Shown here: positions 4,997-61,690 of the stretch, one piece after another
Layout: each line of letters begins with the position of its first letter
Numbering within the stretch: the first letter of the stretch is position 1
Assembly (NCBI RefSeq): GCF_963921235.1
Contig: NC_086097.1
Coordinates: 26,166,001-26,230,000, forward strand
Direction of reading: 5' to 3'
Source: Mobula hypostoma
Taxonomy: Eukaryota
Length of the DNA stretch: 64,000 nt
Position numbers and translations under genes: made by a program
The notes under the pieces: generated by a model
What the model was told of the DNA's origin: nothing
The model's database searches: none
The model's input: only the letters and a program-made list of their open reading frames with translations

Positions 4997-5257
4997 AAAC
5001 AAGAGAAAACCTGCAGATGACGGAAATCCAAGCAACACACACAAAATGCTAAAGGAACTTAGCAGGCCTGGCAGCATCTATGAGCATGTACTTATCCAGA
5101 ATAGAGTTTCAGGAGAGATAATTTGATCAAATCTGAATCATTTAGTGTACAATTTGTCCTGATGAAGGGCCTTGGCCTGAAACATTGACTATTACTATTT
5201 TCCATAGATGCTGCCTGGCCTGCTGAGGTCCTCCGGCATTGTGTGTGTGTGACTTCC
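4997..5257. mobile_element. ORF-less inverted Penelope terminal-repeat unit
   Basis: Minus-strand arm 4997-5082 and plus-strand arm 5156-5257. Flanked by AAGTACTTCCTCAC (4983-4996) and AAGTACCTCCTCAC (5258-5271). Sits inside a CR1 3' end. Confidence 0.75.
5156..5189 (+). ncRNA. Minimal type I hammerhead ribozyme motif (helix III mutated)
   Basis: GTC-CTGATGA-AGGGCCTTGGCCT-GAAA-CA-TT-GAC: core intact, stem I GTC/GAC, stem II AGG/CCT. Confidence 0.65.
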
Positions 5258-5309
5258 AAGTACCTCCTCACCTCAGTTCTGTACATGTATATACTGTATA
5301 TAGTGAAGT

Positions 5310-5926
5310 AGCATACAGGGGTTCATTGTTTGTTCAGAAATCTGTTGGCAAAGAGGAAGAAGCTGTTCCTAAAATATTGAGTGAGTGTCTTCAGGCTCCT
5401 GTACCTTCTCTCTGATGGTAGCAATGAGGAGAAGGCATGGCATGCATGATGGGGGTCCTTATTGATGGATGCCACCTTTTTGAGGCATCACCTTTTGCAG
5501 ATATCCATGGTTTGTTTGGTAGCTAGTGCCATGATGGAGCTGGCTGAGTTTACAACCCTCTCAGCTTTTTCTGATTCGTACAGTGACCCCTCCCCTCCTG
5601 ACCAGACAGTGATGCAACTAGTTAGGTTGCTCTTCTGCAGAAATTTGCTCAAGTTTTTGGTGGCATACCAAATCTCCTCAAAATCCAAATGAATATAGCT
5701 GCTGGTATGCCTTCTTTGTAATGGCATCAATATGTTGAGCCCACGATAGATCTTGTACGACGTTGACACCCAGGAACTTAAAACTGCTCACCTTTTCTAC
5801 TGTTGATCCTTCAATAAGGACATGTTTATTTGGAACTATGGTATTGAAGGTGGAGCTACAGTCAATAAATAGTAGTCTGCATCGATGTCTTTATTGTCCA
5901 GATTCTCCAGAGATAATTATTGGGCC
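5310..5926 (-). mobile_element. Old Rex1-type LINE fragments (host of the Gypsy insertion)
   Basis: Degraded RT C-terminal peptides (ORF 5488-5769); LINE-like sequence resumes after 11316. Confidence 0.7.
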
Positions 5927-6365
5927 TGACGTGGTGTTCAGTGTTGGCTCTGGTCTAAAGGGAGAGACAGAGACAGAATGAGCAGTTCACTGATTAATAA
6001 GATCTGTAGAGAACCAAAGGAAAAAACATCAATGCTAGACCAACAGGACCTTTAGCTCAAACTCTCAAACTAAAATCTAATGCTGTCTCTGTGGCTCGGA
6101 AGCAATAACTTAATACTAAACTAATACCACTTTTTCGCAGCATCAATCTAGATTGTAATGTCCTAGAATGTGGACTGAAGAAGCAGGGAGCATTGCCATT
6201 GCTATGCTTCAGTCAAGACTCAACAAGAATGGAATGAGAGGAATGGAATTAAATGAAACACTAATTGGCTGGGATCTACATACTCATGAGTGTGATTGCT
6301 AACACTGTTCAGCTGCCTGCCTGTGAGAACACCCAGATTCTGTGGCAGAGTTTGTGGTTGTGACA
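5927..6365 (-). repeat. 3' LTR of Gypsy element
   Basis: TG...CA termini; directly follows the polypurine tract; homologous to 10541-11316. Confidence 0.85.
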
Positions 6366-6379
6366 GGACCCCCTTCCCT

Positions 6380-9300
6380 AGATGCAGCTCCCAAGGTGCC
6401 AGAATCCTTGCCTGCTGGAAGTCCCAGATGACAGAGTTGTCCAGGATGTCATGGTCTGGAACCCAATCCTCAGGGACATACCCCTCCTAATCCACAAGAT
6501 AATGGACCCTGCCCCGCACCCAGCAAGATGCCAGAAAGTGGCGCACAGCCAGGGACCGATCCACCAAGCAGGGAGGAAGTGGGGGGGAAGGAACTGGAGC
6601 ACAGGGGGAGGAAGTCACCGGCTTGATAGCTTTTTCCACTATGAATGGTTCCATATAGCATAGAGCCAATGCAAAGCTCTTAGATTTCAAACGAAGATCT
6701 CTAGATGCCAACCAGACTTCCTCCCCCCCCCCACCCGGTCAAGCCAATCAGTCTGCCGGACATATTGTTTCTGAGGCTTGGCCCATCTCTACATGCACTT
6801 GTAACTGTTCAGCAGCAGGAACTCCCACATCAATCTCTTGGACAGGAAAGAGTGGTGACTGGAATCCCCTCTGGCATTCAAGGTGGACATGCCAGTGGAG
6901 AATGACTGAAGGCTAATGTGGGCAGTCTCTGCCCAAATCATTTGGAAGCTCCAAGTCTTAGGGTTGGAAGAAACAAGGCAGTGCAGGGCTGCCTCCAGCT
7001 CCTGATTCACTCTTTCAGTCTGATCATTAGATTGGGGGTAAGAACGAGATGAGAGGATGGCTGTAGCTCCCAAAAGAGAACAGAAAGCCTTTCAAAAACA
7101 GGGTGTGAAATATTGTCCTCGATCAGACACTATCTTAAGGGCGGCAGTCTCACGAGCCGACAAGAGCTGGGGAACAACAATGAAGTGGGCAGCTTTGGAG
7201 AACAGGTCCAAAAGCACCAGAATGGTTGTGTTTCCATTGGAGGGGGGAAGACCAGTGATGAAAGCACAGGCAGCAGGCAGAGTAAACCCATAGGGCACTG
7301 ATGTGATATCTTGTTCTGGGCACAAGTGACAAAGTCATGGGTATCCTGGGACACAGAATGTCACCAAAATCATCTCTTTATGAATTCCAGGGTCTGTTGA
7401 ATTCCCAGATGGTCAATCAGATGGGAAGAATGACCCCACTCCAACACTCTGGGGAGCACAGTGGCAGGGTCAAACAGCTGGTTGAAATGATCCCACCTGG
7501 GCCTGGATCTGACTTTTGGGCAGCCCTCACCTCTGCCTTTATCCCCCAAATCACCAGAGCAGCAATGCATGAGTGAGGAAGGTCGGGCTCTGAATTGGTG
7601 TTGTCCTCAGAGATGTCAAGCTAGAGGGACAGAGCACCCACCTTGGTATTCTTGCTGCCAGGTGGTAGGTGAGGGTGAAATTTATCTGCATAAAGAAAAG
7701 ACCCCAACAGGCTTGATGGGAGTTGAGTCCCTTGGTTTCCAAATTTAAGAGAGGTTCTTGTGATCTGTTCAAACCAGAAGGAATGCTCTTCCCCTCCAGC
7801 CAGTGTCACCATGCTTTCAGAGTCTTCTTAACAGCTAAGAAGTTCTTGGTTCCCAGCATCATAGTTAAACTCAGCAGGAGTCAAGCAATGGGAAATTAAA
7901 ACCCAGGGACGCAGCTGATAATCCACAGAAGAGCACTGGGAGAGTACAGCTCCAATGCCAGCATCTGATGCATCAACCTTAATGATGATTGGACAGGATG
8001 GGTCTGGATGTTGCAGGTCCGGGGCAGTGGTGAAGCATCATTCTAGTTCTGAGAATGCTTGGTCTGCTTCATTTGTCTGTAGGAATGCTGCAGAGGTCCT
8101 CTTGGTGGGAGCATTAATGGGGGCCACAATGGAACTGAAGTTCTTGATGAAGCAACAGGACAAGTTTGCAAATTTCATTAAGCGCCTTATCTGTTTGACC
8201 TTAGGTGGTTTGGGCCACTCTGTGACTGCTTGAACTTTCCATGGATCCATTTGAACACTGGAATGAGTGACTAAATAGCCCGAGAAAGGCACCTGCTCTT
8301 TTTGGAACTCACTCTCCTCTGATTGGCATAAAGGTTGTTCTTGAGGAGCCATCTGAAACCCTCCAGACATGCTGAATGTGTTCCCAGCAAGAACGGGAAT
8401 AGATAAGAATATCAACTACGTGCATAAAAACAAACTGATTCAGTATTTCCTGAAGCACATAATTGATCAGGGCCTGAAAAAAGAGCAGGGCGTTGGCCAG
8501 ACAAAATGGCATCATGAGAACTCTCAGTGGAACGCTGTCTTCCACTCGTTCCCTTCTCGGATATCTTGGAGAATATGGTTGCTCCTTGGAGATGTTCTAA
8601 CGCAATGGCAAGCAGGGGAAGAAGGTAGCGGTTCCACTCTGTGATTGTTGTCAGGAGCCAATAATCAATGCAGGGACAGAGTTTGCCATCCTTCTTGCTC
8701 ACAAAAAAGAAATCAGTCTCTGCTGGCGAGGTTGGCAGATGGATAAATCCTAAGGACAATACCTCCTTGATGTATTCTTCCATGGCCACCGTTTCAGGAC
8801 GAGAGAGGGAAAAGAGACAGTGTGGAAGCAGCAAGGTGGCCTTCTTCTTACTGAAGACCTCAAGAAAGTCAGAATATTCAGTTGGAATACAAGACAGGAC
8901 CACACTAGCAATTGGCACAGAAGAGGATATGCAGACAGGTAGACCGGCATGCCGGTCTCCATTCTTGGAGTGTCTTTAGGGACCAATCAATCCATGGGTT
9001 GTGTCAAGCTAACCAGGAAAGGCCAAGTATCAGCAGCAGTTCAGATGAATCAACAAAATAGAAGGACAGCTGTTCCCATAGTTGCCTTCTACCACATGTT
9101 GGAGTGGTTCTGTGGAAAGGTAGATCTTGCCGGTGCCCAGAGACCAACTGTCCAGAGCCTTGACATCGATATTCTGTCTCAATTACTGAGTCAAAACTCC
9201 CCACCTTTAAGCAGAGGTGTCCATGAGATTCCCGGCTGCCCCAGAGTCAGTAAATGCCTGAAGCTCATGGGTCTGGGATGTCCACAACAAAGAAGCTTGG
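6380..9300 (-). pseudogene. pol: Gypsy pol remnant (RT, RNase H, integrase, chromodomain)
   Basis: [17 protein letters not shown] (RT); [41 protein letters not shown] (integrase); VRGRVHYLVD (chromodomain). Many stops and frameshifts. Confidence 0.85.
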
Positions 9301-9329
9301 ATCATTATGCCATGAGGGTGAGATGCTTG

Positions 9330-10521: not shown

Positions 10522-10540
10522 TTTAGAGGTCAAGTCTTGC

Positions 10541-11316: not shown

Positions 11317-11349
11317 GGGTTACGGAGATGGCATCCATTGTAGACTTGT

Positions 11350-13285: not shown

Positions 13286-13419
13286 AGGAGCACAGTGATA
13301 CAGTGAATCAGCGTACTGTCAACTCACATTGCTAAAAGCCCAATTCATTTTCCACATTTGGAGTGCTCACTATTCCCATCATAAAATGTGTTCATACAAG
13401 CTGGCAAAGCACATAAACT

Positions 13420-13518
13420 GAGTAATACACACAAAATGTTGGAGGAACTCAGCAGGCCAGGCAGCATCTATGGAAAAGAGTACAGTCGACATTTCAGGCC
13501 GAGTCCCTTCATCAGGAC
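13420..13518 (-). mobile_element. Solo Penelope terminal-repeat fragment starting at the hammerhead motif
   Basis: Homologous to 21946-22046; ACATAAAC at 13411 and 13517 may be a TSD. Confidence 0.75.
13485..13518 (-). ncRNA. Minimal type I hammerhead ribozyme motif
   Basis: Minus strand reads GTC-CTGATGA-AGGGACTCGGCCT-GAAA-TG-TC-GAC. Confidence 0.72.
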
Positions 13519-14941
13519 ATAAACGAAGTTCAGTATACAGTAACACTTGCAAAAGGCCTTGTTACTGAGGTAAAGCAAAACCTTCTGCTTAATTAAAACT
13601 GAGGAAGTTTCCAGAAAGAACAATGGTCATAAGCCACTAACAAAGCACAGTTCCAAATAAAGAGAGCAAAATCCTTCCAGCTCCCACACTGCTTCTATCA
13701 CCTGAGGAGGAATGTGGGGGAACTGCTTCATTCAGAGGGTGGTGCGAGTGTGAGGATTGGATAAGTACATGGATGGGAAGGGTATGGAGGGCCATGGTCT
13801 GGGCAGAATAATAGTTCAGCATGGGCTAGATGGACTGAAGGTCCTGTCTGAGTGTTGTAGCGCTCTATGACTTGGAAATTATTCACTAACCTAAAGACTT
13901 GATGTTCTTGAAAATGCAACATCAGTGATGTGTTCATTCAGAACACTCATTTGGCTCTCACTCCAGTCTATACATATTGTTCAAGACATAAAATATGAAC
14001 GTTCTTACTGTTGAAACTATGTATTAATGCCCTCATTATATTCAATCATATGTTGTGGCTTCAGCTAGTTTAATGTTGCTTTACAATCTGACAGGTTGTT
14101 GCATTTTCTGATACATAACAAACAACTATCACACTTCTGTAAGAGGCTGAAATTGTGTTTTCAGTTTGTAACCTCTGAAATCTGAAGAAGCCAAGCCTAT
14201 GATTAAACAAGAATATTTCAATTGTACTTTTGACTCCTTCTTTAAAGCCATAAACCAGCATCTTACCTGCCCCTCCACAATTAGACTTTGATCCAGAAGC
14301 CATACTGACCACTTATATTTACTGTTTGCCTGAAGTTCAAGTCTCCATGGCAATAGAAAAGAATTCCCATCAAGGGAAAAAAACAAAAGCATAATATTGG
14401 GTGAGACAGACTGCTTAGTATATTGACTAAATTTCCCACCAACACTGCTGGCTGCAAGCCACTCCACTTTGTCTCTGCACTATTCAGTTGGACCATTAGG
14501 AGCAATTAGCAACCATGATAGAATTGTGGGCCTCATTACTATCGTTATTATCTTAACATTAGCATGCTACGGGATAACTGCATGGTCATAATCACAAAAC
14601 TCAGAGGGGAAGTACATAGGTTTAATGGCACTCTTACTATGAATTACTTACTATTTCTGCTCATATTAAGTCTTATAACAAGTAGTTGTAAGACTCTTCC
14701 TTGCTGATTAACAGGGCGACATTTGAAAAATGGCTTGAAAATAGGGATTAATGTCTTACTTTCCATTCCCCAATTGATCTGACATATGATCAAAACATTC
14801 TTACAATGCCTAGCTCTAGATTGCTACCAACTGACAACGCTATTTGCAAAGTAATTAGGAGCCAAACTTTATTCAACTTAACAAATTTTGAAAACAGAAC
14901 TTTAATTCAGTTGGACCGTTAGGAGCAATTAGCAACCATGA

Positions 14942-18453: not shown

Positions 18454-18455
18454 AC

Positions 18456-21380: not shown

Positions 21381-22010
21381 CAGAAAATGGTTCGGCACAA
21401 CCAAGAAGGGCCAAAAGGCCTGGTTCTGTGCTGTAGTTTTTCTATGGTTTCTATGGTTTCTAAGGCTGTGTGCTTAGCCCATTGCTGTTTACACTGCTAA
21501 CACATGACTGTGCAGCCAGATTCAAGGGGAACCTGATCGTTAAATTTGCAGATGATACCACAGTGGTGGGGCTCATCAGCAAAAATGATGAAACAATGTA
21601 CAGGGAGGAGGTCAAACACCTAGAGAGCTGGTGTAGGGATAACAACTTGATGCTTAATGTCACCAAAACCAAGGAGATGATCGTTGATTTCAGACGGTAT
21701 CAGCCTGAGCACACACCCCTCAGCATCAGCGGCTCCACAATGGAGAGAGTGGAAAACATCGTTCCTTGGGGTGCAGATCTCGGACAATCTCACCTGGTCC
21801 AGGAACACCACTTTGGGATTGTGAAACGGGCCCAGCAGAGATTGCACTTTCTGAGGAAGCTTAAACAAGCATCACTCCCCACTAACATCTTAGCTACATT
21901 CTACAGAGACAAAAACAACAGGAATTCTGCAGATGCTGGAAATTCAAGCAACACACATCAAAGTTGCTGGTGAACGCAGCAGGCCGGGCAGCATCTCTAG
22001 GAAGAGGTAC

Positions 22011-22046
22011 AGTCGACGTTTCAGGCCGAGACCCTTCGTCAGGACT
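22011..22046 (-). ncRNA. Minimal type I hammerhead ribozyme, consensus-intact
   Basis: Minus strand AGTC-CTGACGA-AGGGTCTCGGCCT-GAAA-CG-TC-GACT: full core, stems I and II, GUC triplet, palindromic minimal helix III (ACGT). Confidence 0.82.
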
Positions 22047-22393
22047 AACTGAAGGAAGAGTTAGTAAGAGATTTGAAAGTGGGAGGGGGAGGGGGAGATC
22101 CAAAATGATAGGAGAAGACAGGAGGGGGAGGGATGGAGCCAGGAGCTGGACAGATGATTGGCAAAGGGGATATGAGAGGATCATGAGACAGGAGGCCCGG
22201 GGAGAAAGACAAGGTTCCCCCCCGCCCCCGTCTTTCTCCCCGGGACTCCTGTCGCATGATCCTCTCATATCCCCTTTGCCAATCACCTGTCCAGCTCTTG
22301 GCTCCATCCCTCCCCCTCCTGTCTTCTCCTATCATTTTGGATCTCCCCCTCCCCCTCCCACTTTCAAATCTCTTACTAACTCTTCCTTCAGTT

Positions 22394-22429
22394 AGTCCTG
22401 ACGAAGGGTCTCGGCCTGAAATGTCGACT
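22394..22429 (+). ncRNA. Minimal type I hammerhead ribozyme motif
   Basis: AGTC-CTGACGA-AGGGTCTCGGCCT-GAAA-TG-TC-GACT. Confidence 0.78.
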
Positions 22430-24172
22430 GTACCTCTTCCTAGAGATGCTGCCTGGCCTGCTGCGTTCACCAGCAACTTTTATGTGTGTTGCTTACATTC
22501 TACAGAGGCGTGGTTGAGAGTGTGCTGATCTTTTGCATCACAGCCTGGCACTCCAGCTGCAGTGCTGTCGACAAAAATGCCTTGCAGAGTGTGGTTAGGG
22601 GAGCAGAGAAGGTTATTAGGGTCTCCCTACCTTCTGTCCAAGACCTCTTTCAGAGTCGATGCCTCCAGAAGACACAGTACATCATTAAAGACCCCTCACA
22701 CCCTCTCCATGAACTGTTTGTTCTTCTGCCATCAAGCAAACGTTACAGGAGCATCAAAACTAAAACCACAGGGCTACTAAACAGCTTCATCCCACAGGCA
22801 GTCAGACTGCTAAATAGCTGCTCTACCTGACTCTGCTTTGGACACTTTTAACTTGCACTGGACACTTATAACTTGATTTTAACTGACATGTGACTGTTGT
22901 GTTTTACTATTTATTGTTATGTTTATTAATTAGTGTTGCGTTTGTTATGTTATGATTGCACTGCTCCTGAGAAACGCTGTCTCATTCTGCCCTGCAGAAC
23001 TGATGTACGGTTAGAATGACAATGAAGTTTTTTGAATCTTGAATCTCACCTTAACCATGGACTTTTTACTCTCCTCCCATCCGGTAGGTGCTACAGGAGC
23101 CTCCGCTCCCACACCAGCAGGCACAGGAAGAGCTTCTTCCCTGAGGCTGTGACCCTGCTGAACCTCTCATCACAGCACAGCGCTAAGCAGTATTGCATCC
23201 GTATTGTACTGTCTCAGTACTTTTATATTTGTGTGCTGTAGCACTTTTTATTCGCAGTTATTTGTAAATAACTCTATTCTTTTTATTTCCAGTCAGATGC
23301 TAAATGCATTTCATTGGCTTTGTATCTGTACTCGGCACAATGACAATAAAGTTGAATCTAATTAAACTAATCTGAAATCATGCAGACACTGATGCTGATA
23401 ACAAACTGCCTTCGTACAATGCTTTCAATGATTGCATCCTCCAAATCTTCAATTTCATTGTAACGTTCAAGATGATTGTTAATACCTTCAAATTCTTTGT
23501 AGTATCTAACTTGTTGAAGTAGTAAAGTCATTTGATTTTCACTCATGGCTGTTTTGGGCATCTCCAAGCCTGAATGCTTGAAACTACAATAAGCAAAACA
23601 GTTCTAAATTGTTTTACTGCGACTCCTTGCCAACTACTGTTGATAAAAATTGCTGCTTTTTGAATACAAACTCACACAACTGATGCTATTTAAAAACTGT
23701 TCGCTCGAAGCACAGTGTTTGCGGCTGACGCAAGTTAGAAACTGGTAACAGTCTCCTTTTCCAATTAAGCGCCATAATGTCCCAAATAACTGAACAGAAT
23801 CCCAGATATTTTCTTAATTAGTTTTTGTTCTTTAAGTGTTGTCCTAAATATGCAGCTACCCCAATTAACCAGTGGCTCAATTAACTGGAATCCACAGTAT
23901 TTCTTATTGTAATTTTTGGATTTTTATTATTATGTGTTGCAATGTACTGCTACAGCAAACCAACAATTTTCACAGCCTACTGTATGACAGTGATACTAAA
24001 CCTGATTCTGAGTGTGATTTTCAACAGTCTCTAGAGTTTATAGAGAATGGAAAAACAAAAAAAATCCTGTGAGTGAAAATGTCTTGTTAATGAGATAGGT
24101 TAGATTAATAAGAAGGCATATGGTGTGTAGGCCTTCATCAACCATCGGATTGAGTTCGAGCCAAGAGGTAAT

Positions 24173-34775: not shown

Positions 34776-36328
34776 GAAGTGGAAGAGATGGACACAAGTA
34801 CAATGCTTAAAAGGCATTTGGACAGATACATCGCTAGGAATGGTTGAGAGTAACACAAGTTAAATAAATAAACTGACAAACAAATATATGACTGGATGAA
34901 CGAATAAACAAACAAACAAACAAATAAATAAATGGGATTCAATCAGGAAGGCATCTTGGTCGGCAGGGGTAAATTGGGCTGAATAGTCTGTTTCAGCCCA
35001 CTGAGTCAGCAACAACCATCAGCCACCCTTTTACACTAATTGTCCAATAATCCCAGCAAAGACTCAGCAAATCTATAGAATCCTGTTGTAGTTACTATTC
35101 AGTAGATTTGCAGAGTATGCCCACAAGAAAATGAATCTCAGGGTTGTATATGGTGATATATATGTACTTTGATAATAAATTTACTTTGAACTTTTTTCTC
35201 CACATATCCTTATTAATTCCTCCCAGATTCTACCACTTTCCTACATACTGGACGAAGAGCAATTTATAGAGGTCAAATAACCCAAAGAAACCAGGACACT
35301 TAAGAGGAAAGCCACATGGTCATAGGGAGAACGTGCAGACTCCACACAGACAGAAGCCAAAGTCAGGATTGAATCCATGTCTCTGGCTCTGCAGAGCAGT
35401 AGCATTTCTCATGAACCATTTCCTTGATCTGAGAAAGTCAAGAAGGGAGGTACAGAGAGCTGGCAGCAGAAGTGCTGGTTAATGAAATTATGAAATTTAA
35501 ACACCTTTCCTAAATCAAAACAACAAATGTGGAATCTCTCTGCATTGGGATAATAAGTGGCTGTTTGCCTAGTGGCAGCAAACAATGAGAGATTCACAAC
35601 TGAGAGTCTGCGTTAGAACAAATAAATTTGCCCAGGGAGCTACATTTTAAACAAGTAATCTGGTTCAAGGATGAAGAAACTGGAAAAAAATGTTCACATG
35701 GCACATTGAGCAGACAGTAGTCAGTAGCAGAGATTTTATGTTCTATCTCTGAACCAGAATCAGATTTAATATCACCAGCATAAGTCATGAAATTTGTTAA
35801 CTTTGCAGCAGCAGTATAATACAATACATGATAAACTTTTTAAAAAATGAATTACAGTAAGTATATATATGTATATTAAGTAGTTAAGTCAAAATAAGCA
35901 GTGCAAAAACAGAAATTAAAAGTCTGAGGTAGTGTTCATGGGTTCAATGTCCATTTAGAATGGGTTCAATGTCCATTCTGATGGCAGAGGTGAGGAAGCT
36001 ATTCTTGAATCGCTGAGTGTGAGCCTTCAGACTTCTGTACCTCCTTTCTGATGGTAACAATGAGAAAAGGGCACATCTTGGGTTACATGCGGAAGAAATT
36101 TCACTCTGCTGTAAACACTTCAAATGAGACTCTGGAGAATACATCACATAAGCAAGCATACTCAATCTGTATCAGCAAGAATCCTATGGCACAAGAGGTT
36201 CTCCAGATGCTGGAAATCTTCAGTAACACACCCAAAATGCTGGAAAAAACTCAACAAATCAGGGAGCAAAACACACAAGGAGCTGGAGGAACTCAGCAGG
36301 TCAGGCAGCATCTATGGAGAGGAATAGA

Positions 36329-36366
36329 CAGTCAATGTTTCAGGCTGAGGCCCTTCATCAGGACTG
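36329..36366 (-). ncRNA. Minimal hammerhead motif in the PLE 3' terminal repeat
   Basis: Minus strand CAGTC-CTGATGA-AGGGCCTCAGCCT-GAAA-CA-TT-GACTG. Confidence 0.68.
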
Positions 36367-36436
36367 GAAACAAAGGGGAAAGATGCCAGAATAAGAAGGT
36401 GAGAGGAGAGGAAGGAGTACAAGCTAGAAGCCCAGA

Positions 36437-37382
36437 AGACTATAGGACATAGGAACAGAATCAGGCCATTCAGCCCATTGACTCTGCTCCGCTATTCCAT
36501 CATGGTTGATCCTAGATCTGACTCAACCCCATACAGCTGCCTTCTCACCATATCCTTTGATGCCCTGACCAATCAGGAAAAGATCAACTTCCGCCTTAAA
36601 TATATGCACAGTCTCCACCGCAGTCTATGGCAGAACATTCCACAGATTGAATACGCTCTGGCTAAAAAATTCCTCCTTACCTCTGTTCTGAAGGGTTGCC
36701 CCTCAATTCCGAAGCTGTGCCCTCTAGTTCGGGATACCCCTACCATAGGAAATATCCTCTCCACACCCACCCTGTCTAGTCCTTTCAACATTCGGTAGGT
36801 TTCAATGAGATCCCCCTGCATTCTTCTAAATTCCAGTGAGTACAGGACTAAAGCTGTTAAACGCTTCTCAAATGGTAACTCCTTCATTCCTGAAATCATT
36901 CGTGAACTTTCTCTGGACTCTCTCCAATGAAAACATCCCTTCTGAGATTTGGGGCCCAAAACTGTTGACAGTATTGCAAATGCAGCCTGACTAGTGTCTT
37001 ATAAAGGCTCAGCATTATCTCCTTGCTTTTATATTCTACTCCCCTTGAAATAAATGCCAACATTGCATTTGCCTTCTTTACCACAGACTCAACCTATAAA
37101 TTAACCTTCTGGGAGCCTTGCATGAAGACTTTTAAATCCCTCTGCACCTCTGATGTTTGAATCTTCTCCCCATTTAGATAATTGTTTCTTTTACCAAAAT
37201 GTATTATCATACATTTCCCAACGCTGTAGTCCATCTGCCACTTTATTGACCATTCTTCCAATTTGTCTAAGTCCTGCTGCAACCATTTTGCTTCCTCTGT
37301 ATTACCTCTACTTATCTTTGTATCATCTGCAAACTTTGCCGCAAAGCCATCAATTCCATGATCCAAATCATTGACAAACAAT
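36437..37382 (-). mobile_element. CR1 LINE, 5'-truncated, inserted in the PLE
   Basis: KFADDTKI, KKANAMLAFISRG and GDLIETYRMLKG peptides; CR1 3' UTR and tail. Confidence 0.9.
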
Positions 37383-37599
37383 AAGTGAAGTCAGGTGCGT
37401 GAGGGAAGGGGGTTGAAGTAAGGACCTGGGAGTTGATAGGTGGAAAAGGTAAAGGGCTGGAGAAGAATGAATCTGATAAGAGAAGAAAGTGGACTTTGGG
37501 AAAAGGGGAAGGAAGAGGGGCACCAGGGAAAGGTGAGGAGAAGAGGTAAGAGGGAGGCCAAACTGGATAATTGAAGAAGAGGGAGGGAAAATTTACTGG

Positions 37600-39390
37600 A
37601 AATTGGAGAAATCGATGTTCATGCCTTCAGGTTGAAGACTACCTAGATGGATTATGAGGTGTTGCACTTCCAACCTGAGAGTGGCCTCATTGTGGCAGAA
37701 GAGGAGGCAATGGACTGACATGTTGGAATGGGAATAGAGATTGGACTTAAAATGGACCGAAAGTGCTCAACAAGTCAGTCCCCCGATCTATGTCAGGTCT
37801 CAGCAATGAAGAGTAGGCTACGTTGGGAGCATTGGACCCCAATAGATTTACAGGTTATGTGTTGCCTCACCTGGAAGGATTGTTTGAGGCCTTGAATGGT
37901 GGTAAGTGAGGAGATGAATGGGCATGTGTAGCACTTCTTCCGCTTGCAGGGATAAGAGCCAGGAGAGAGACTAGTGGGGAGGGACGAATAATCAATGGAT
38001 CACAGAAGGAGCAATTCCAGTGGGAAGTGGAGAGTGGGTGGAGGTAAAGATGTGTCTGGTGGTAGGGTCCCATTAAAGATGGTGTAAGCTGCAGAGAATG
38101 ATGTGTTGGATGAGGAGGCTCAGGGGTGGTACATAAGGACAAGAGAAACTCTCTCCCTATTAAGGTGGCAGGAAGATGGGGTGAGCATGGATGTTCAGGA
38201 AATGGAGGAGATGCAGGTGAGGGCAGTATCAGTAGTGGAGGAAGGGAAACCCCATTGTTTGAAGAAAAAGGATACCTCTGATGTGCTGGAGAGGGAAAAC
38301 ACATCCTGGGAACAGATGCGGCAGAGACGAAGGAATTGAGAAAAGAGATAGCATTTTTACAGGAGACAGGATGGGAAGAAGCATTGTCAAGATAGGCGTA
38401 GGTATCAGTAGGTTTACACGAGATGACAGTAGACGGTTTTTCTCCAGATATGGAGATAGAGATATCAAGAAAGAGGAGGGAGATGTCAGAAATGGACCTA
38501 GTGAATTTAAGGGCTGGGTGGAAGTTGGAGGCAAAGTTGATGAAATTGATGAACTCAGCATAAAGCAGCACTAATGCAGTTAGCAATGTAGTGCAGAAAG
38601 AGTTGGTGAGCACTACCTGAGAAGGTTTGGAAAAAGCAACATAGCCAATGAAAAGGCAGGCATAGCTGGGGCCCAGGTGGGTGCCCATGGCTATACCTTG
38701 AGTTTGGGGAAAGTGGGAGGAGCTGAAAGAGAAACTGTTGCGGTGTGAGGCCCAGTTCTGCCAGATGGAGGAGGATGGTGGAAGGGAACTGGTCAGAGTC
38801 TGTTGTTGAGAAAGAAGAGAGAGCTTTCAGGCCTTCTTGATAGGGGATAGGAGTGTATAAGTTATCCATGGTGAAAATGAAGTGATTGGGGCAAATGAAT
38901 TGGAAGTTGTTGAGGAGATTGCGAGCATGTGAAGTGTTGTGGGCCTACCTAGACAGTCAGGTTTGTAGGAGGTAGAAATGAGCAGTGCAGAATTAGGGAA
39001 CTGGTGGCAGTGGATGAGAGAACTACGGGGGTGATGGTGCAGAAAACAATGGCCTGATGGTCCTAAGGGAGGTGCCTGAGAGTTGCCGCCTGGCCTCAGC
39101 AAGGTAGACATCAGTCTGCCAGACTACAACAACACCCTCTTTGCAGGTTTGATGGTGAGGTTGGGATTGGTGTGGAGAGAGTGGAAGGTAGCGTGTTCAG
39201 AGGGGGCAAGTTATGAAGAAGAGAGAGGAGTGCTGAAAATAAGTGGGGTGCCCAAAAAGAGGAGCAGGTTTGGAGATGAGAGAATAGGTCATTGATGCGG
39301 GGTGTGGAATCCTGGCCAAAGAAGTGGGCTTGGAGACAGATGCGATGGAAGAAGAGCTCAGTGTTGTAGCGGGCACGGAACTCACTGAGG
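37600..39390 (-). pseudogene. Penelope RT + GIY-YIG endonuclease remnant
   Basis: MGTHLGPSYACLFIGY, FASNFHPALKFT, FLDISISI, KPTDTYAYLD, LYTPIPYQEGL and ELFFHRICLQAHFF match PLE ORF motifs; heavily frameshifted. Confidence 0.85.
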
Positions 39391-39619
39391 TGAGCAAGCA
39401 ACATCTATGGCGAGGAACAAGTTAGTCAACATCTCATGCCGAGACCCTGCATTCGGAATGGAAAGGAAGGCAGCAGACCCCATGATACGTTCCTTATAGA
39501 TCTAAGATTGTCAGCAGATAATTGCAGTTTTAGAGATTTTAGAGACTGAAGGACTTGTTCATCAGAGATCAGATTTTTTTGGGTAATTGGCTCTAGAATA
39601 AAGAAACAATTATTGCGGA

Positions 39620-44429: not shown

Positions 44430-45748
44430 AAAGGATGAAGCCCATTTTAGAGCAGGTTGTATGAAGATTGGAGAAGGGTGTCTCAAGGTGGCACATCTCA
44501 TTGAGATCTTTATTTATTTTACCTCCTGTACCTCATAAAGTGCCAGTGAGTGTACGTTCATGCTGCCGTAGCCCAACCACTTCAAGATTCAATGTGTGGT
44601 GCATTCAGAGATGGTCTTCTGCAATCACTGTTGCAATGCATGGTTATTCGAGCATTTTGTGTGTGTCGCTCTGGATTTTCAGCAATGGCAGAATTTCTTG
44701 TCTTTATGATTTACTCAATGCATGTGCTTATATTTGTCTCTCTCAAACACATACCCTATCTCTCTTATATACCTAAAGCCATTTGGAAGAAATCTTTGTG
44801 GTCAGCCATAACATTTCCCTTAAAGTAGGTTTTAAAATAGATTGCAGACTTTATACCCCTTTTAAGGACAACTGACAATCAGGAAAGTTGTTTTGGTTTG
44901 ATCACTAATTAGATTTCAAGTGCGAGCTGAGTTCTTTCAAGGTAAAAACAATTGGTCTTTAAATAACAAAAGGTTTTGAAAGCAAATTGTCCAGCAAAAG
45001 TATGCATAGATCCATGAAGTATGACACTCTTCTCTGCTCCAGGTTTCCGGCACTTCCTCATGGACTTTTAACCCTCATTGTGTTGCTCTGAATTTGAGCA
45101 GAACTCTTTCCACAACAATAAAGACTGTCATTGTGTGGATAACTTGTCTTTCCTAAAGTTTTCCCCAAGGAAAACTATCTATGTCAATCAACTTCTGAAC
45201 ACAGTAGTTGCTCTTCAATCTGACTTCTGGAAATGGAAGCATTTGATCCACACAAAAGCAAAGTCATTTCAATGTCTGACAGGATAATTTATGATTGTTC
45301 CAAGTTTGGAAATGGTCATTCAGTTCCTTAGACCTTTTCCATCGTTCAATACCAAGCTGATTGCTTTGTATCTTCATTGAGGTCACCTTTGAACAGCCTA
45401 CCTCTGTTTTTAGTGTCACGCAATACAGAAAGAAGCCCTTCGGCCCAACTCATTTGTACTGATCTTCTTGAGCCAGTCCCATTTGTCTACATTTGGCCCA
45501 ATTCCCTCTAAATAGAACAGCACAGCACAATACTGGCCCTTCAGCCCACAATGTTATGCTGACCCTTTAATGTACTCTAAAATTAATCTAACCCTTTCCT
45601 CCCCATAACCCTCCATTTTTCTTTCATTTTCTTAAACGTCTTTTAAACATTGTAATTGTTCCCATCTCTAAAGCTTGTTCCATATACCCACCACCATCTG
45701 TGTGAAGAAGTTGCCTCTCAGATCTCTGTAAATCTTTCCCATCTTTTC

Positions 45749-48268: not shown

Positions 48269-48444
48269 TCTCCTTAAACTTATGCCCTCTAGGTTCAGAT
48301 TTAATTACCCTGGGAAAATTATCTTGTCCACCCACTTTATCTGTGCACCTAATTATCTTATGAACCTCCACAAGGTAACACTTTAACTTCTTTTGCTCCT
48401 GGGAGAACAGCCCCAGCATGTCCAATCTCATTATAACTCAAGCC

Positions 48445-48695: not shown

Positions 48696-48886
48696 TGCTG
48701 GAGGAACTCAGCAGCTCAGGCAGCATCTATGAAAGTGAACAAACTGTCGGCAGTTGATGAAGGGTCCTGGCCCAATACTTAAACTGTTTATTCCCTTCCA
48801 CAGATGCTGCCTGACATGCTGAGCTCCTCCAGCATTTTGTGTGTGTTACTCTAGATGTCCAGCATCTGCAGAATTTCTTGTGTTTA
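48696..48886. mobile_element. Inverted Penelope terminal-repeat unit with degraded hammerhead
   Basis: TGCTGGAGGAACTCAGCA...GCAGCATCT arm faces AGATGCTGCC...GCTCCTCCAGCA arm; TTGATGAAGGGTCCTGGCCCAATA is a mutated core. Confidence 0.7.
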
Positions 48887-49699
48887 TGATTCTGGATTAC
48901 AAGTCTATAAGACACGGGAGCAGAATTAAGCCATTTGGCCCATCAAGTCTGCTCCGCCACTCCATTATGGCCGATCCATCATCCCTCTCAAACCCATTCC
49001 TATGCTGCTCCCTGTAACCTTTGACAGCCTGATTAATCAAGAGCCTATCAACCTTGCACTTTAAATATACCCAATCACTTGGCTTCCATAACTGTCTGTG
49101 GCAATTAATTTCACAGATTCCCCACCCTCTCTCTGGCTAAAGAAATTCTTCCTCATCTCTGTTTCAGATGGTCCTTCATTTCTAAGGCTGTGCCTTCCGG
49201 TCCTAGACCCCGCCCCCATAGGAAACATCCTCTCCACGTCCATTCTATACAGGCCTTTCAATATTTGATAGGTTTCAGTGAGATCCCCCACTCCTCCCCA
49301 TCTTGTGTCCATATTCTCAATCCTGATGCCCCCATCAGTGGAAAGAGTTTTTCTCTTTCCTTCATACTAAATCTTCCCTAACTCTAAACACCTCCATCAT
49401 GTTCAAGTCCTAAACTTCCGTGGAGACACATGAGACGGCGGGAAGTTGGTGCAAAGGTAGCACCAACTCCAAAGAGGGCAGAAGGTGAAACGTGGAGGAA
49501 CACACAATCTGCTGGAGGAACCCAACAGACTGAGCAGAACGTGTGGGAGGAAAGAAAGTGATGACCTTTCGGGTCAAATTTCTAAGCTGAGGAAAATAGA
49601 AGGATGTCACATAAGTTAATCCTTTTAACCATCATATCATTGGTAATCCTGCACTGCACCTTTACTTGAGCTATGGTACCCAGAGATGAACACTGGTAT

Positions 49700-54492: not shown

Positions 54493-54524
54493 CGGAATCA
54501 CAGAATGACTCAGGACAACTTGTA

Positions 54525-54700
54525 TAAAATGCTGGAGGAATTCACAGGTCAGGCAGCATCTACGGAGAGGAATAAACAGTCAATATTTTGGGCCAAGACC
54601 AGCCCATCTCGAAATGTTGACTGTTTATTCTTCCTGAGTTCCTCCAGCATTTAGTATGTGTTGCTCTGGATTTCCAGCATTTGCAGAATCTCTTGTGTTC
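54525..54700. mobile_element. Inverted Penelope terminal-repeat unit (hammerhead 5' half deleted)
   Basis: AATAAACAGTCAATATTTT arm faces GAAATGTTGACTGTTTATT arm. Confidence 0.7.
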
Positions 54701-55014
54701 AGAACAACTTCTTCCCCTATGCCATCAGATTTCTGAACGGTCCATGAACACTGTCATTATTTATACTTTAATGTAAATTAGAGTGATTTTTATGCCTTGC
54801 AGTGTACTGCCATCATGGAACAGCAATTTTCACAACATGCTGTATGTCAGTGATAATAAATGTGATTCTGATTGAGGGGGATTGACCTTAGGCTTTACAT
54901 TTACCAAATAGCTTTACCCCACAAAGCGCTTTTGGAAGCAGTGTCTGTGCGTCAAATAATGGCTCCTGATAAACAATTTGCACATAGCAGGCTGCTGCAA
55001 ACAGCAAAGCAAAA

Positions 55015-57790: not shown

Positions 57791-57865
57791 CTCTAATCTT
57801 TTGAGAGAATGGTTCCAGCTCTTGTAACATCTGTATTGTTTAAGGGTATTCTGCTGATGAAGAAT

Positions 57866-58087
57866 ACACACAAAATGCTGGAGGAACACAGCAGGTCAGG
57901 CAGAAACAAATAGTCAACATTACAGGCCAAGAAGGGACCCCTTCCCACTGTTTGCAGTCCTGATGAAGGGTCTTGGCCTGAAACATGACTGCTTGCTTCC
58001 AGTCATAGATGCTGCCTGACCTGCTGAGTTCATCCAGCATTTTGTGTGTGTGGCTCGACATTTCCAACATCTACAGAACTTCCTGCC
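57866..58087. mobile_element. Inverted Penelope terminal-repeat unit with 16-bp TSD
   Basis: TCTGCTGATGAAGAAT at 57850-57865 and 58088-58103; inverted arms in between. Confidence 0.85.
57954..57992 (+). ncRNA. Minimal hammerhead motif (1-nt loss at the cleavage triplet)
   Basis: GCAGTC-CTGATGA-AGGGTCTTGGCCT-GAAA-CAT-GACTGC with a 6-bp stem I. Confidence 0.58.
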
Positions 58088-58499
58088 TCTGCTGATGAAG
58101 AATGTGTGAAACCAACGTGGTTGCCATCAATAAATATTGTTTTCTTCAGGCAGTCCCATGGGGTCAGGGATGGCTTGCACTCTGTTGGTTTTGAGGTGAC
58201 TATGAGGCCAGATGGGAATTGCTGACTCCTCCACAGGTAGAACGGGAGGAGCCTGATAGATGAGTGGGTACGACCAATCATTAATACAACACTTTGCAGC
58301 CTGCTGTAATTAATATAACTCAACAGCAGGTAGCAGAATAACCTCAGCTATCATTGATGGCTTGAATAGCATCCATTCTAAATTAAACTGATAAATTAGC
58401 CTATTATTGTCCCCCTTACCAAGATTCAGTGAGAAACTTCGTTTTGCATACCGTTCATAACAGTGCATTGAGGGTAAATCGGTTTATTATTGTCATGTG

Positions 58500-58960: not shown

Positions 58961-59469
58961 TGTGCAGATCATTTCACTACAAGAGTGCATTAAGGTAATA
59001 ACAGAATAATCTCTTTTCCATAGATACTGCCTAGCCTGCTGAGTTCCTCCAGCATTTTGTGTACGTCAACAGAAAAATCATAATCATAAAGACAACTGCA
59101 TCCCTTGAGTTTGAAAGTATTTCCTTTCTCCAGAGGACTGTAAACCTTTGGGATTTACCATCCCAGAACATTTAGGGCACGGAGAATATTCTTAGTTTGC
59201 GGGAGTTTGAGAGAATCAAGGGAAATGTGCAACAGAAGAGAAAGAGAGCTAAATCTGGGTTCAAGACAGGTAACTTACATAGAACAGTACTACAGGGACA
59301 GGCCCCTCTGCCCACAGTGTTGTGCTGAACTAATTAAACTGAGATTTAAAGGCCTGCTAAACTAATCCCTTCTGCCTGCATAGCTAACAGGGAAACAAAT
59401 GGGGGAATAGGACTAATCAGAAAACACAAAATATGATCTTTTTTATGTTTTTTATATAAATAATAAATA

Positions 59470-60066
59470 TTAGCTTTATTTGTCACACGTACATCGAACA
59501 CACAGTGAAATGTGTCATTTGTGTCAAATCTTTTTTTTTGGTGTGTGCCTGCGTGCGTGTGAGCCTGTGCGTGTGTGTCTGCGTGTGCGTGCGCATTTGT
59601 GTGTCCGTGATGATGGATTTTTCGTGGCTTGTTTTACCAGGTGCGGAGCGAGAGGGAGACTGTGTGCTGCCCCACTCCTCACACAGACATTTCTGCAGTA
59701 TTTTCCCTTGATTTTACGAGGTCGAGTTGTGATCCCGGCACGGATGGAAAGCGTACTCAGGAGCGGACCCGACTAGTTTCAAACCCGGGAACCTCCTCTC
59801 CCAGGTTCGGCGCCGATGTCAAATCTAATCAGTGAAGATTGTGCTGGGCAGCCTGCGAGTGCAGCTATGCTTCCAGCGTCAACATAGCATGCCCACAACT
59901 CACTAACCCTAACCTGTGTGTCTTTGGAATGTGGGAGGAAACCAGAGCACCCAGAGGAAACCCACATGGTCACAGGAAGAACATACAAACTGCTGGCAGA
60001 CAACAGGGGAATCAAAGCCCGATCTTACTGCTGCAAAGTATTGCCCTGACCACTATCCTACCGTGC
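59470..60066 (-). mobile_element. V-SINE-like SINE with a second tRNA-derived SINE nested at about 59622-59822
   Basis: Outer copy has the GGGTTTCCTCTGGGTGCTCTGGTTTCCTCCCACATTCC core. Inner copy has GGGTTTGAAAC (B box-like) and a tail similar to 34716-34770. Confidence 0.7.
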
Positions 60067-60354
60067 TCTTAAATCTTTTCACATCATTCAGGACCCTCCC
60101 CCCCCCACACACACCCGAGTATGGGAGACCAAAACTAGGAGACATAGATTTAAGGTGAGAGGGCAAAGATTTAAAAGGGGCCAGGGTGGCACCATTTTCT
60201 ACCCAGAGGGTGGTGGGTGAGTAGAATGATCTGCCAGAGGCTGTGATAGAGGTGGGTACAATTGGAAGACATTTAGACAGGTTCATGGAGAAGAAAGGTT
60301 TAGAGGAATATGGGCCATATGCAGGCAAATGAGACTAGCTCCGGTGGCAAATCA

Positions 60355-60460
60355 TAAACACAAGAGTTTCTGCAGATGCTGGAAATCCAGAGGAACACAC
60401 ACAAAATTCTGGAGGAACTCAGCAAGTCGGGCAGCATCTGTGGAGAGGAATTTCGGGCTG
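60355..60460 (-). mobile_element. Solo Penelope terminal-repeat fragment
   Basis: CTGCAGATGCTGGAAATCCAG...GGAGGAACTCAGCA...GCAGCATCT. Confidence 0.75.
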
Positions 60461-61444
60461 AATCCAAATAAAGGGCAAATCCTTCCGACAGATGAACTGG
60501 TTCAGGGCATCTGGGACAAGGCAGCTGCTTGTCTCTTGTGATAGAAAATCGGACACAAAATATCAAGAATGCTGGAGGTCCCTGGGAAAACTCCTTGCCT
60601 TTGTATGAAACTTGTTATTAACTACATTTAGAAAATAGGATAAACAATTTTGGAAGATGTTATGGGCCTGTATTGTTCCACAATCCCAACACCCTCCGAG
60701 TGAAGAAGTTTGCCCTCAGGTTCCCCTCAAATATTGCACCTTTCACTCTAAACCTATAGCTTCCAGTCTCACTCAGTCAAGGAGAGGGAGCCTGGATGCA
60801 CTCCCCAGAACTGCACATAATACTCTAAATTTGCCCTCACCAGCATCTTAACAACTTCAGCATCACATCCCAACCCCAATATTCATTGCCCTGATTTATG
60901 AAGGCCAACTCCTTATGCCTCTTTCACAGAATTATATATCTGTATTCCCAGGTGTTTTTGCCCTCTGTGTCCCACCATTCACAATGCAAGTCCTACCCTA
61001 GTTTGTCCTCCCAAAGAACGACACCTCACACTTCTCTGCATTAAATTCCATCTCCCATTTTTCAGCCTATGCTTCCGGCTGGTCCAGATTATTTTGCTTT
61101 GATAGTCTTTCTCACTGTCCACTACTCCCCCAATCTTTCCATTCTGCATTATTCTCTGACTCTAACTGCAAAAAGGTAATTTCTGCGGCATTAAGGGGCA
61201 AAGGTCAGCGAGGGTTGGAGTGTTGTACAGGAGTAGCAGAAGAGGGCTGGGCTGGGTATTCTATTATTCTGAAGGTCATTAACAAACAAGCTGGGGTAAT
61301 GATGTAGCCTCAAGATTTGACCAAGTTTATTAAAACTAGAATTGATTGTCAGCAGGACTCTGTTGTTTGATTCAACCATTCAGTTTAGTGAGTCAATTGA
61401 TTTTTCAACTTTTAAACTTGTCTGAAAGTAAAACTGACAAAGAA

Positions 61445-61690
61445 GAAGTCAGCAAGTCAGGAAGTATCTACGCAAAGGAATAAATAATTGACATTTAGGA
61501 CCGAGACCCTTCATTGGTCTGAGTCGACGTTCCCCTACCTCCCCCCTTCATTGGGACACATCCCAATGAAGCATCTTGGCCCAAAATGTCGAATGTTTGT
61601 TCCCCTCCGTAGATGCGGCCTGACCTGCTGAGTTACTCCAATATTTTGCGTGTGTGCTCTGGATTTTCAGCATCTGCAGAATCTCATATT
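61445..61690. mobile_element. Inverted Penelope terminal-repeat unit, both hammerheads degraded
   Basis: TGACATTTAGGACCGAGACCCTTCATTGG arm faces CCAATGAAGCATCTTGGCCCAAAATGTCGA arm. Confidence 0.7.

Follow-up and report, generated by a model that had tools for sequence, protein, structure and literature searches.

The window analyzed here, a 64,000-nt stretch of the Mobula hypostoma genome, contains 20 decayed arms of one repeat family at 12 loci (Table 1). The motifs they carry are probably hammerheads of the minimal type I kind, located in the end repeats (pLTRs) of a Penelope-like element (PLE) of Neptune type, whose fold-back copies are likely to derive from cDNA priming on both strands of a staggered cut, with two start sites and no need for ribozyme cutting. 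Class of element, motif, and fold-back arrangement all have published precedents. In the literature, supplements excepted, we found neither a shark or ray hammerhead of this PLE family nor any mention of PLE 5' ends at stem I; supplements, including the species lists of PMC4209133, may name the former. A genome with about one insertion per 5 kb, as in this window, preserves extensive natural evidence of where RT starts and stops and of how strands are paired.

Table 1. Coordinates of the PLE-derived features in the window.
Feature	Position	Strand	Remarks
Locus A fold-back	4983..5271		TSDs 4983-4996 / 5258-5271, 14 bp
Locus A minus arm	4997-5083	-	long 3' end
Locus A spacer	5085..5158	-	inverted copy of adjoining 4595-4669, 62/74 identical
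Locus A plus arm	5156-5257	+	hammerhead, short 3' end
Locus B single arm	13411..13529	-	short 3' end; 5' end on stem I 5' strand, abuts 11/13 TSD
Locus C young fold-back, distinct subfamily	21895..22507		perfect 14-bp TSD, 19-nt spacer
Locus C arms	21909-22210, 22230-22493	-, +	97% complementary
Locus C intact minimal type I hammerhead	22010..22047	-	stem I 22047-22043 / 22014-22010, C3 at 22042
Locus D+E, 3' pLTR of near-full copy	36190..36432	-	hammerhead 36366-36329, long 3' end near 36190
Locus D+E, LINE 3' fragment in 3' UTR	36433..37375	-	boundaries approximate
Locus D+E, decayed, internally deleted Penelope-like ORF	37596..39404	-	many stops, frameshifts
Locus D+E, 5' pLTR remnant	39395..39470	-	degraded hammerhead
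Locus F short 3'-end fragment	44643..44709	+	without hammerhead; possible 9-bp TSD
Locus G fold-back	48696..48889		minus arm from predicted cut site (~48746), plus arm from stem I 5' edge (~48749)
Locus H diverged arm	49478..49580	-	3' half of motif
Locus I fold-back	54510..54710		both arms begin in stem II; 11/12 TSD 54510-54521 / 54699-54710
Locus J fold-back	57850..58103		perfect 16-bp TSD
Locus K	59000..59079	+	56-bp insert 3' of motif; 11/12 TSD
Locus L single arm	60346..60481	-	long 3' end, motif internally deleted; 8-bp TSD candidate
Locus M old fold-back	61442..61689		both arms from stem I 5' strand; variant core common to both

Identity of the element family

A profile built from the arms recovers 20 arms at E<0.05 in the 64-kb window, whereas the reversed window yields none. 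Of the 20, 15 retain the hammerhead motif in whole or in traces; copies across the family range from 56 to 585 bp. The relaxed core pattern (16 matches, against a mean of 7.7 and a maximum of 13 in 30 shuffles) is not significant alone. The first-pass annotation had reported about 11 hammerhead motifs, and these are real: CUGANGA occurs at 5159+, 13515-, 22042-, 22398+, 36361-, and 57960+, and all five degraded or partial motifs (39424-, 48753+, 54578-54622, 61485-, and 61562+) are present. Its count requires revision to the arms and loci given here. The motifs at 36329- and 39424- prove to be the two ends of one decayed element.

That element, which had gone unrecognized, is a near-full PLE copy at 36190-39470 on the minus strand. 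It comprises, in order, a hammerhead, RT, CX4CxxC linker, GIY-YIG, and a second hammerhead, and its ORF is flanked by hammerhead pLTRs on the same strand. The 3' pLTR contains a partial tandem duplication without a second motif, and the interrupting LINE fragment is one that we take to be CR1-type. Within the ORF, an N-terminal remnant, DKG region, RT, thumb, CX4CxxC linker, and C-terminal GIY-YIG can be followed, with a candidate ATG about 17 nt 3' of the motif. For an in-frame 132-aa piece, seven of eight homolog matches are ray RT/GIY-YIG proteins at 54-67%. The ORF also matches RT plus GIY-YIG proteins of 880-950 aa, and alignment places it collinear with relatives bearing RVT_1 and GIY-YIG. 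The CX2-5CxxC linker near 37950 is present in 10/10 long relatives; the DKG region is frameshifted in the window copy and reads ADKG in all ten. Pfam returned no PLE domain match on the window's ORF pieces, and a frameshifted 319-aa frame had no homologs among 5249 candidates. By this alignment, the decayed ORF nonetheless corresponds to a single reading frame with a PLE-type RT followed by a C-terminal GIY-YIG, the arrangement that defines an EN+ PLE.

On sequence grounds, the arm family is the pLTR of a PLE, probably of Neptune type, a known kind of element present here in high copy number. Neptune is preferred over Nematis because it is reported in vertebrates; the CX2-5CxxC linker is common to both. 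As described in PMC8557442 and PMC3846280, Neptune and Nematis EN+ PLEs share with this family an RT with C-terminal GIY-YIG, the linker, hammerhead pLTRs, an adjoining inverted truncated copy with a 30-40 bp tail and variable TSD, and an ORF start that likely lies inside the pLTR. They differ in that the copies here are mostly 56-300 bp long, TSDs reach 14-16 bp against 8-10 bp in the rotifer cases described there, and 5' ends favor the stem I edge. A diverged arm (locus H) probably belongs to another subfamily. Pattern scans for further copies gave none in two metagenome scans, in viral contigs, or in prokaryote genomes, and no tRNA gene was found.

Integrity and decay of the hammerhead motif

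All 11 core bases are retained in six arms, and stem pairs are mostly kept. The palindrome with its GUC cut triplet (ACGUC) survives only at 22042-, where cleavage is predicted between 22015 and 22014. The motifs at 13515- and 22398+ read AUGUC (locus B keeps its 11 core bases with the palindrome AUGU), and the other three have lost palindrome or triplet through CpG decay or deletion. The earlier label of core-intact for six motifs goes too far: the palindrome and cut triplet are complete in only one. A palindromic 15.1-16.1 with a NUH triplet in place of helix III occurs in that one arm and in the majority of matching contigs. In two DNA runs, CpG variants amount to 9-13% where the CpG belongs to the cut site or the palindrome, and to 10-12% in loop II.

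These features follow metazoan PLE minimal type I hammerheads as described by Cervera and De la Pena (2014; PMC4209133): a short stem I, no helix III, an extra base after A9, G10.1-C11.1 in part of the family, a palindromic 15.2-16.2, and a mostly solitary occurrence with opposite-strand pairs 100-700 bp apart. Stem II differs, being only 3 bp long here. In the first half of PMC4209133, no cartilaginous fish is named among the carriers of such hammerheads. If the window is typical, an extrapolation, density here lies far above the 4,000-9,000 copies per genome given there for coelacanth and Xenopus.

After insertion, the motif decays neutrally. Core mismatches (13/127, 10%) match those of the 3' flank (85/752, 11%; p=0.88), and no compensatory pair changes occur among the 8-11 arms per pair, dead copies with low power. 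The first-pass annotation had named the lack of extra core conservation and covariation as a finding that would count against its reading, and on this point it does not stand; such a lack is expected because the copies are dead. Post hoc removal of three CpG-prone core positions gives 4/95 versus 85/752 (p=0.03), a count by which there may be some core conservation. The notion of a genome very rich in hammerheads is apt for motifs but not for working ribozymes, as one of 20 arms is fully intact. Nearly all copies are dead, and the genome is therefore not filled with active ribozymes.

No Rfam family reaches its gathering score in the window, and none of the 71 matches at E<=10 in 21900-22520 is a hammerhead model. 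The microRNA matches in that listing reflect only the long hairpin.

Geometry and origin of the fold-backs

Five or six fold-backs had been claimed, and six were found (4997-5257, 21909-22493, 48696-48889, 54522-54698, 57866-58087, and 61442-61689). In all six, 3' ends point outward and one arm is about 35-45 nt longer. Each pairs a long with a short 3' end, for which chance is 1/64 if the ends are independent at even odds. In locus C, a 37-nt tail is confined to the left arm and the insertion target is a LINE fragment. In locus J, the short end and a partial motif fall on the minus arm, the long end and a core at 57960 on the plus arm. The spacer of locus M holds a third short motif fragment. 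That of locus A terminates in short microhomology with stem I and is likely a templated insertion at the junction. Contig clips fall at 21913 in all four runs and at 21947-21949, 34-36 nt away, in two runs whose RNA status is a guess, and contigs cannot show RNA ends. Every fold-back thus has an adjoining inverted 5'-truncated copy and a one-sided tail, the layout of 30-40 bp tail plus TSD described for PLEs in PMC8557442 and PMC3846280.

The three long TSDs reported earlier are confirmed, at 4983/5258 (13/14), 21895/22494 (14/14), and 57850/58088 (16/16). Further ones occur at 54510/54699 (11/12), 59000/59068 (11/12), and 13411/13517 (11/13), with weaker candidates at 60346/60474 (8/8) and 44634/44716 (9/9). 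In an automated test against random flank pairs, 8 of the 12 loci have TSDs of 8-16 bp (p<0.03); D+E, G, H, and M yielded none. Among the six fold-backs, the partner arm is clearly the closest relative only in C and marginally in I; in the other, older ones it is no closer than other copies. Single-event origin hence rests on the TSDs of four of the six.

This geometry is consistent with a mechanism in which a dimer of the PLE RT-endonuclease would nick both target strands 8-16 bp apart. One cDNA would begin at the outer start site and the other about 35-45 nt inside; both would stop early and be joined via microhomology or a short templated filler. Purified PLE protein, predicted to be a dimer, is described as cutting and extending both strands, with RT from two sites bounding the tail and hammerhead cleavage unneeded (PMC11167929). 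Anolis Poseidon PAc (Frangieh 2024, PMC11167929) shares the two start sites bounding the tail, the cutting and extension of both strands, and a hammerhead near the ORF start. It belongs to another clade, and its ORF is described as starting inside stem II, unlike the ATG predicted here 3' of the motif.

Self-priming, in which nascent cDNA snaps back via stem I or a palindrome at the junction and serves as its own template, has been proposed for PLE inverted junctions (PMC3846280). It fits locus C equally well, since this fold-back is almost symmetric with both arms ending at the same base. Locus G, moreover, joins an arm from the stem I 5' edge to one from the stem I 3' strand, and in two contig joints 22045/22046 is paired with 22010. 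We nevertheless regard it as unlikely. As DNA, the antisense motif has a weak predicted fold (-2.8 kcal/mol) in which stem I is not formed, partners of the 22042-22046 edge vary (21936, 21956, 21987, 22003, and 22010), and self-priming alone leaves the one-sided tail and single arms such as B unexplained.

Retrozymes of animals derive from PLE pLTRs and are described in the one chondrichthyan sampled (bioRxiv 10.64898/2026.07.22.740005). As short, non-coding, hammerhead-bearing units of the same kin, such non-LTR retrozymes resemble the present copies, whose high number, short length, and motif could suggest a self-propagating retrozyme or SINE-like family spread via circular RNA. This reading is highly improbable. 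Retrozymes are head-to-tail tandems, whereas the copies here are truncated PLE ends with TSDs, standing singly or head-to-head; no head-to-tail hammerhead array occurs among the 20 arms, no unit length is apparent, helix III is missing, and 3' ends match PLE RT start sites.

Three other origins were rejected. A MITE or DNA transposon does not agree with ends that are the RT-type 3' ends of a coding PLE, and an assembly artefact is countered by TSDs, diverged arms, and matching contigs in two organisms. L1 twin priming, the third, is primed from both nicks and yields an inverted truncated insert between TSDs in two non-overlapping parts. The fold-backs are likewise inverted, truncated, and TSD-flanked, but their two arms overlap, each being a copy of one and the same 3' region.

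5' ends at stem I

Of 19 truncated arms, 11 start within the 38-nt motif, and five, from 4 of the 12 loci, start on the stem I 5' strand. Window breakpoints were set by eye to about ±3 nt. For a fixed 6-nt window, the stem I excess has p=0.002 (0.009 with locus M counted once); with any window allowed, p=0.09 (0.38 with M once). After scan correction, the excess within the window is thus not significant.

Among contigs from two organisms, clip sites likewise cluster at the 5' edge of stem I. In counts that exclude some loose ends, 248 and 262 contigs (X1) and 176 and 215 (X5) are 5'-clipped at 22044 and 22045, with long heterogeneous flanks (agreement 0.32-0.35). The row at 22046, and partly those at 22044/22045, includes contigs of another subfamily with divergent upstream sequence, which inflates the edge signal. 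There may accordingly be no true preference, only short 5' truncation combined with subfamilies that diverge just upstream of stem I and stop alignments there; the 22046 consensus resembles D-type upstream sequence, and the scan-corrected values agree. We find this improbable, as the upstream bases in A, B, G, and M are independently explained (local template, TSD, or partner arm), the 22044/22045 flanks are long and heterogeneous, and the edge occurs in two of the four opposite-strand joints shown. If upheld in a subfamily-matched count, the peak would point to a defined RNA end.

The ribozyme region had also been thought to define truncation and inversion points. This applies loosely, given the arms that start within the motif; the cut site itself is not favored. 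The suggested comparison of breakpoints with the cleavage site, carried out within the window, places one of 17 arms no more than 2 nt from the cut, where 0.77 would be expected. The cut site is likewise absent among the best 24 clip rows of contigs from two organisms, with 1270 further rows below them. In the youngest fold-back, the inversion point lies about 165 nt upstream of the motif. That self-cleavage produces the RNA end at which cDNAs stop, setting truncation and inversion points, is consequently very unlikely, even though the motif has the published features of minimal hammerheads and the minus arm of locus G begins at the cut site. Dimer cleavage of PLE hammerheads is covered in a review (PMC6765202), and two intact motifs are more stable together (-32.7 kcal/mol) than apart (2 x -12.2 kcal/mol), but the minimum-energy structure predicted for the dimer differs from the catalytic fold. 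Fold-back motifs lie on opposite strands, so no cis dimer can form. Anolis RNA reads are described as neither beginning nor ending at the cut, and catalytic mutants as still inserting (PMC11167929).

Ribozyme cleavage is a less likely source of this edge than a fixed RNA 5' end, be it a start site or a splice acceptor. We consider the chances evenly balanced that the stem I excess marks such an end, with transcription start a little ahead of a splice acceptor. In two subfamilies, the stem I 5' strand offers an initiator-like YYANWYY and a pyrimidine-tract AG; initiator-like heptamers are common (five in a 302-nt arm). As a 3' splice acceptor, stem I would close a pyrimidine-rich 3' UTR that is removed as an intron where copies stand in tandem, and spliced or splice-intermediate RNA would account for copies that end at stem I. 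Subfamilies C and D have a pyrimidine tract plus YAG immediately at stem I, TACTAAC occurs 12-16 nt upstream in subfamily C, and GTAA stands at the ORF stop. The D. virilis Penelope intron is described as ending at the helix I 5' end (PMC4209133) and as lying 46 nt after the start site (PMC2377424). The splicing account is still doubtful. Spliced templates should bring a common upstream exon, but at locus B the arm directly adjoins its TSD, and the clipped sequences give a heterogeneous consensus; introns are also described as usually retained by PLEs.

Short copies and a possible fixed RNA 5' end

A fixed RNA 5' end also leads to a tentative proposal that we rate as possible, though below even chance: ray PLEs may mass-produce mini-copies of 100-140 nt by run-off, with the RNA 5' end at the first bases of hammerhead stem I. 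RT would begin at the tail sites, which lie 100-140 nt farther downstream at the junction of pLTR and ORF, close to the mRNA front, and would run off that end to yield many tiny copies with one 5' boundary. Hammerheads occur almost throughout the canonical PLE clades, although the single in vitro system works without them. Under the run-off proposal, the motif would mark a transcription start or splice acceptor rather than a cutter, and the very many genomic copies would locate the RNA end with single-base precision and put the function of PLE hammerheads to the test. The fold-backs, for their part, may matter as a source of edited double-stranded RNA.

Element identity

The repeat family consists of pLTR copies from a Penelope-like element (PLE), presumably of Neptune type, in a ray-like genome, an assignment carried by a collinear RT/GIY-YIG reading frame, ray protein matches and a linker motif. 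A profile built from 11 arms (decayed pLTR copies, with or without the hammerhead motif) recovered 20 arms in 12 loci at E<0.05 across the window, whose DNA is vertebrate-type and rich in repeats; it recovered none in the reversed window. The six intact and five degraded motifs reported by the first-pass annotation were located at their positions. The description of the first six as core-intact holds for the 11 core bases, which six arms retain in full, and fails for the ACGUC palindrome and cut triplet, kept solely by arm 22042-; two of the six have AUGUC and the remaining ones have lost the palindrome/triplet. An Rfam search did not recognise the motif as a hammerhead. Its features agree with those of minimal type I hammerheads in metazoan PLEs; solitary copies and opposite-strand pairs of these are already described in excerpts of PMC4209133.

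A decayed ORF lies between motifs 39424- and 36329-, on the strand of both. A 132-aa in-frame piece of it gave eight protein matches at 50-67% identity, seven of which belong to Mobula, Hypanus and Amblyraja; at E<=0.001 it also matched 1859 cluster representatives. Pfam scans of eight long relatives returned GIY-YIG in 8/8 and RVT_1 in 7/8, several of these matches scoring under the Pfam cut-off, and the long relatives align collinearly with 39404-37596. A CX2-5CxxC linker, a feature of Neptune and Nematis elements (excerpts of PMC8557442), was seen in the window copy and in 10/10 long relatives. The near-full copy lacks ~190 N-terminal codons, and its 3' UTR is interrupted by a LINE fragment. 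In three of five arms, a frame starting at an ATG ~17 nt 3' of the motif runs without a stop through the tail, the stretch by which a long 3' end exceeds a short one; a sixth arm, read from another ATG, stands outside this count. This frame is consistent with an ORF start within the pLTR, an arrangement described for elements of rotifers and Anolis (excerpts of PMC3846280 and PMC11167929).

The element shows the PLE features of RT with a C-terminal GIY-YIG domain, hammerhead-bearing pLTRs on either side of the ORF, an inverted truncated copy with a one-sided tail, and target-site duplications of variable length; the family is not a retrozyme array. It is a known kind of element, at striking density. 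The article texts searched held no description of this family or of the stem I edge. Several matches of the 132-aa piece are host gene isoforms containing PLE-derived parts.

Fold-back structure and formation

Fold-backs make up six of the 12 loci, all with head-to-head arms and outward-facing 3' ends. In every one of them, one arm has a long 3' end and the other an end shorter by ~35-45 nt (chance 1/64, assuming independence and even odds); in young locus C the two differ by 37 nt. Three previously proposed target-site duplications were confirmed, with matches of 13/14, 14/14 and 16/16, and flanking duplications reached p<0.03 against ~4000 random flank pairs in 8/12 loci.

This anatomy is shared with published PLE layouts, in which an inverted 5'-truncated copy accompanies a one-sided 30-40 bp tail (excerpts of PMC8557442 and PMC3846280). 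When purified, the PLE protein of Anolis cuts both strands and extends them, initiates RT at two sites bounding the tail, and inserts equally efficiently with a dead hammerhead (excerpts of PMC11167929). Given this shared layout and priming on both strands, we infer that two-ended priming, with cDNAs joined mid-way, is the simplest reading. Self-priming is possible as the source of locus C. In old loci, an arm is no more similar to its partner than to other copies.

Junctions contain fillers: the 74-nt spacer of fold-back locus A is an inverted copy of DNA ~330 bp away and ends with microhomology to stem I. For all six loci, the predicted fold is more stable than that of shuffled sequences. 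According to excerpts of PMC4209133, minimal hammerheads probably require a dimer partner; the fold-back motifs are mutually antisense and stably folded, and therefore supply none. Two further motif fragments in the spacer of old locus M suggest repeated template switching around stem I, and both its arms carry the variant core CCAAUGA, possibly derived from a CCGAUGA subfamily.

Truncation points

The first-pass annotation proposed that the ribozyme region often sets the truncation or inversion point. The 5' ends of 19 truncated arms, placed by eye to ~±3 nt, fall on the stem I 5' strand in five cases (four loci), at the cut site in one, elsewhere in the motif in five, 3' of it in four, just upstream in two and ~165 nt upstream in two. 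Among the 17 arms that lie within 110 nt, the excess on stem I has p=0.002 if that window alone is considered and p=0.09 if any 6-nt window may count (0.009 and 0.38 with locus M counted once). The proposal is borne out loosely, at the stem I edge, and the cut site is not favoured (1 observed, 0.77 expected).

Contigs from four of 24 listed runs were aligned to the young arm; the two DNA runs contributed 144,330 (X1, organism A) and 123,633 (X5, organism B), totals that reflect high abundance and do not equal copy number. The best six clip rows of both DNA runs include the long 3' end at 21913 (at least 686 clips in A, 563 in B) and three consecutive 5' sites in stem I, 22044 (at least 248 and 176), 22045 (at least 262 and 215) and 22046 (at least 651 and 488). 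The cut site is absent among the best 24 rows (1270 further rows follow). In part, the 22046 row reflects a boundary between subfamilies, its consensus being similar to the upstream sequence of the 36.3 kb copy. Clips at 22044 and 22045 are long and of low agreement (0.32-0.35), like unique flanks, with some of the same subfamily contamination. One side falls at 22042-22046, joined to differing partners, in two of the four opposite-strand joints listed and in five of the 12 filler rows listed. A preference for the edge is probably real, and it is not due to cleavage.

Opposite-strand joints between long and short 3' ends (eight contigs in X1, one in X5) perhaps reflect an element inserting into its own end, or fold-back units in tandem or circular form. 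At four sites, plus-strand T>C, equivalent to A>G in the sense orientation of the element, occurs at 9-17% in two runs guessed to be RNA and at 0.1-2.6% in both DNA runs, the samples being unmatched; such a pattern would be expected from A-to-I editing of fold-backs or of paired copies.

Selection on the motif

Extra core conservation or stem covariation was not borne out: in window arms, 13/127 core bases mismatch, compared with 85/752 for the 3' flank (p=0.88), and no compensatory stem-pair changes were seen. Excluding three CpG-prone positions, after the fact, leaves 4/95 (p=0.03). CpG decay in the DNA contigs amounts to 9-13% for the palindrome and cut site, and to 10-12% for loop II; among the variants listed, those inside the motif are all CpG-type, and non-CpG variants lie on both sides. 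Copies decay neutrally, and the motif may be conserved between active lineages.

Proposed origin of the edge

YYANWYY is the initiator consensus. In two subfamilies, the 5' strand of stem I carries both an initiator-like heptamer of this form and a pyrimidine-tract AG; the 302-nt arm holds five such heptamers. In D. virilis Penelope, the intron runs up to the 5' end of helix I (excerpts of PMC4209133) and the start site lies 46 nt before that intron (excerpts of PMC2377424). The favoured, putative explanation is that the edge represents a fixed RNA 5' end, at which RT from nearby tail sites would run off; such run-off would also explain the dominance of tiny copies. Judged from sequence, a putative start site is a slightly better fit than a splice acceptor, given that a common upstream exon was not seen. 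Snap-back through stem I is weakened by the poor folding of the antisense motif as DNA (-2.8 kcal/mol) and by variable edge partners. The stem I edge is one testable detail of an otherwise known kind of element. In the young subfamily, stem I is immediately preceded by a perfect TACTAAC, then a pyrimidine tract with two AGs; these resemble a branch point and acceptor, and could promote exonisation as well.

Features of the window beside the hammerhead arms
Feature	Position (strand)	Remark
LINE	17887-21281 (+)	presumably CR1-type; Pfam: esterase-like ORF1, endonuclease, RT
LINE	46107-48437 (-)	presumably CR1-type; same Pfam matches; 776-aa open frame
Remnant	41340-42843 (-)	presumably hAT-type transposase-like; no Pfam match in pieces tried
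Remnant	8038-8975 (-)	presumably Ty3/Gypsy-type pol-like; no Pfam match in pieces tried
Duplication in 3' end of near-full copy	36190-36290	partial, tandem; connects short end to second tail-bearing stretch
Locus A junction	5085-5158	probable templated insertion, inverted, of neighbouring 4595-4669
Locus M spacer fragments	61517-61565	two, short
TACTAAC stretches	22348-22397, 22043-22090
Tail-to-tail joints	21913-21946
T>C sites	22106, 22109, 22134, 22147
79-nt family D18	12937-13015, 35272-35350, 55161-55239, 59922-60000	candidate V-SINE core resemblance, presumed
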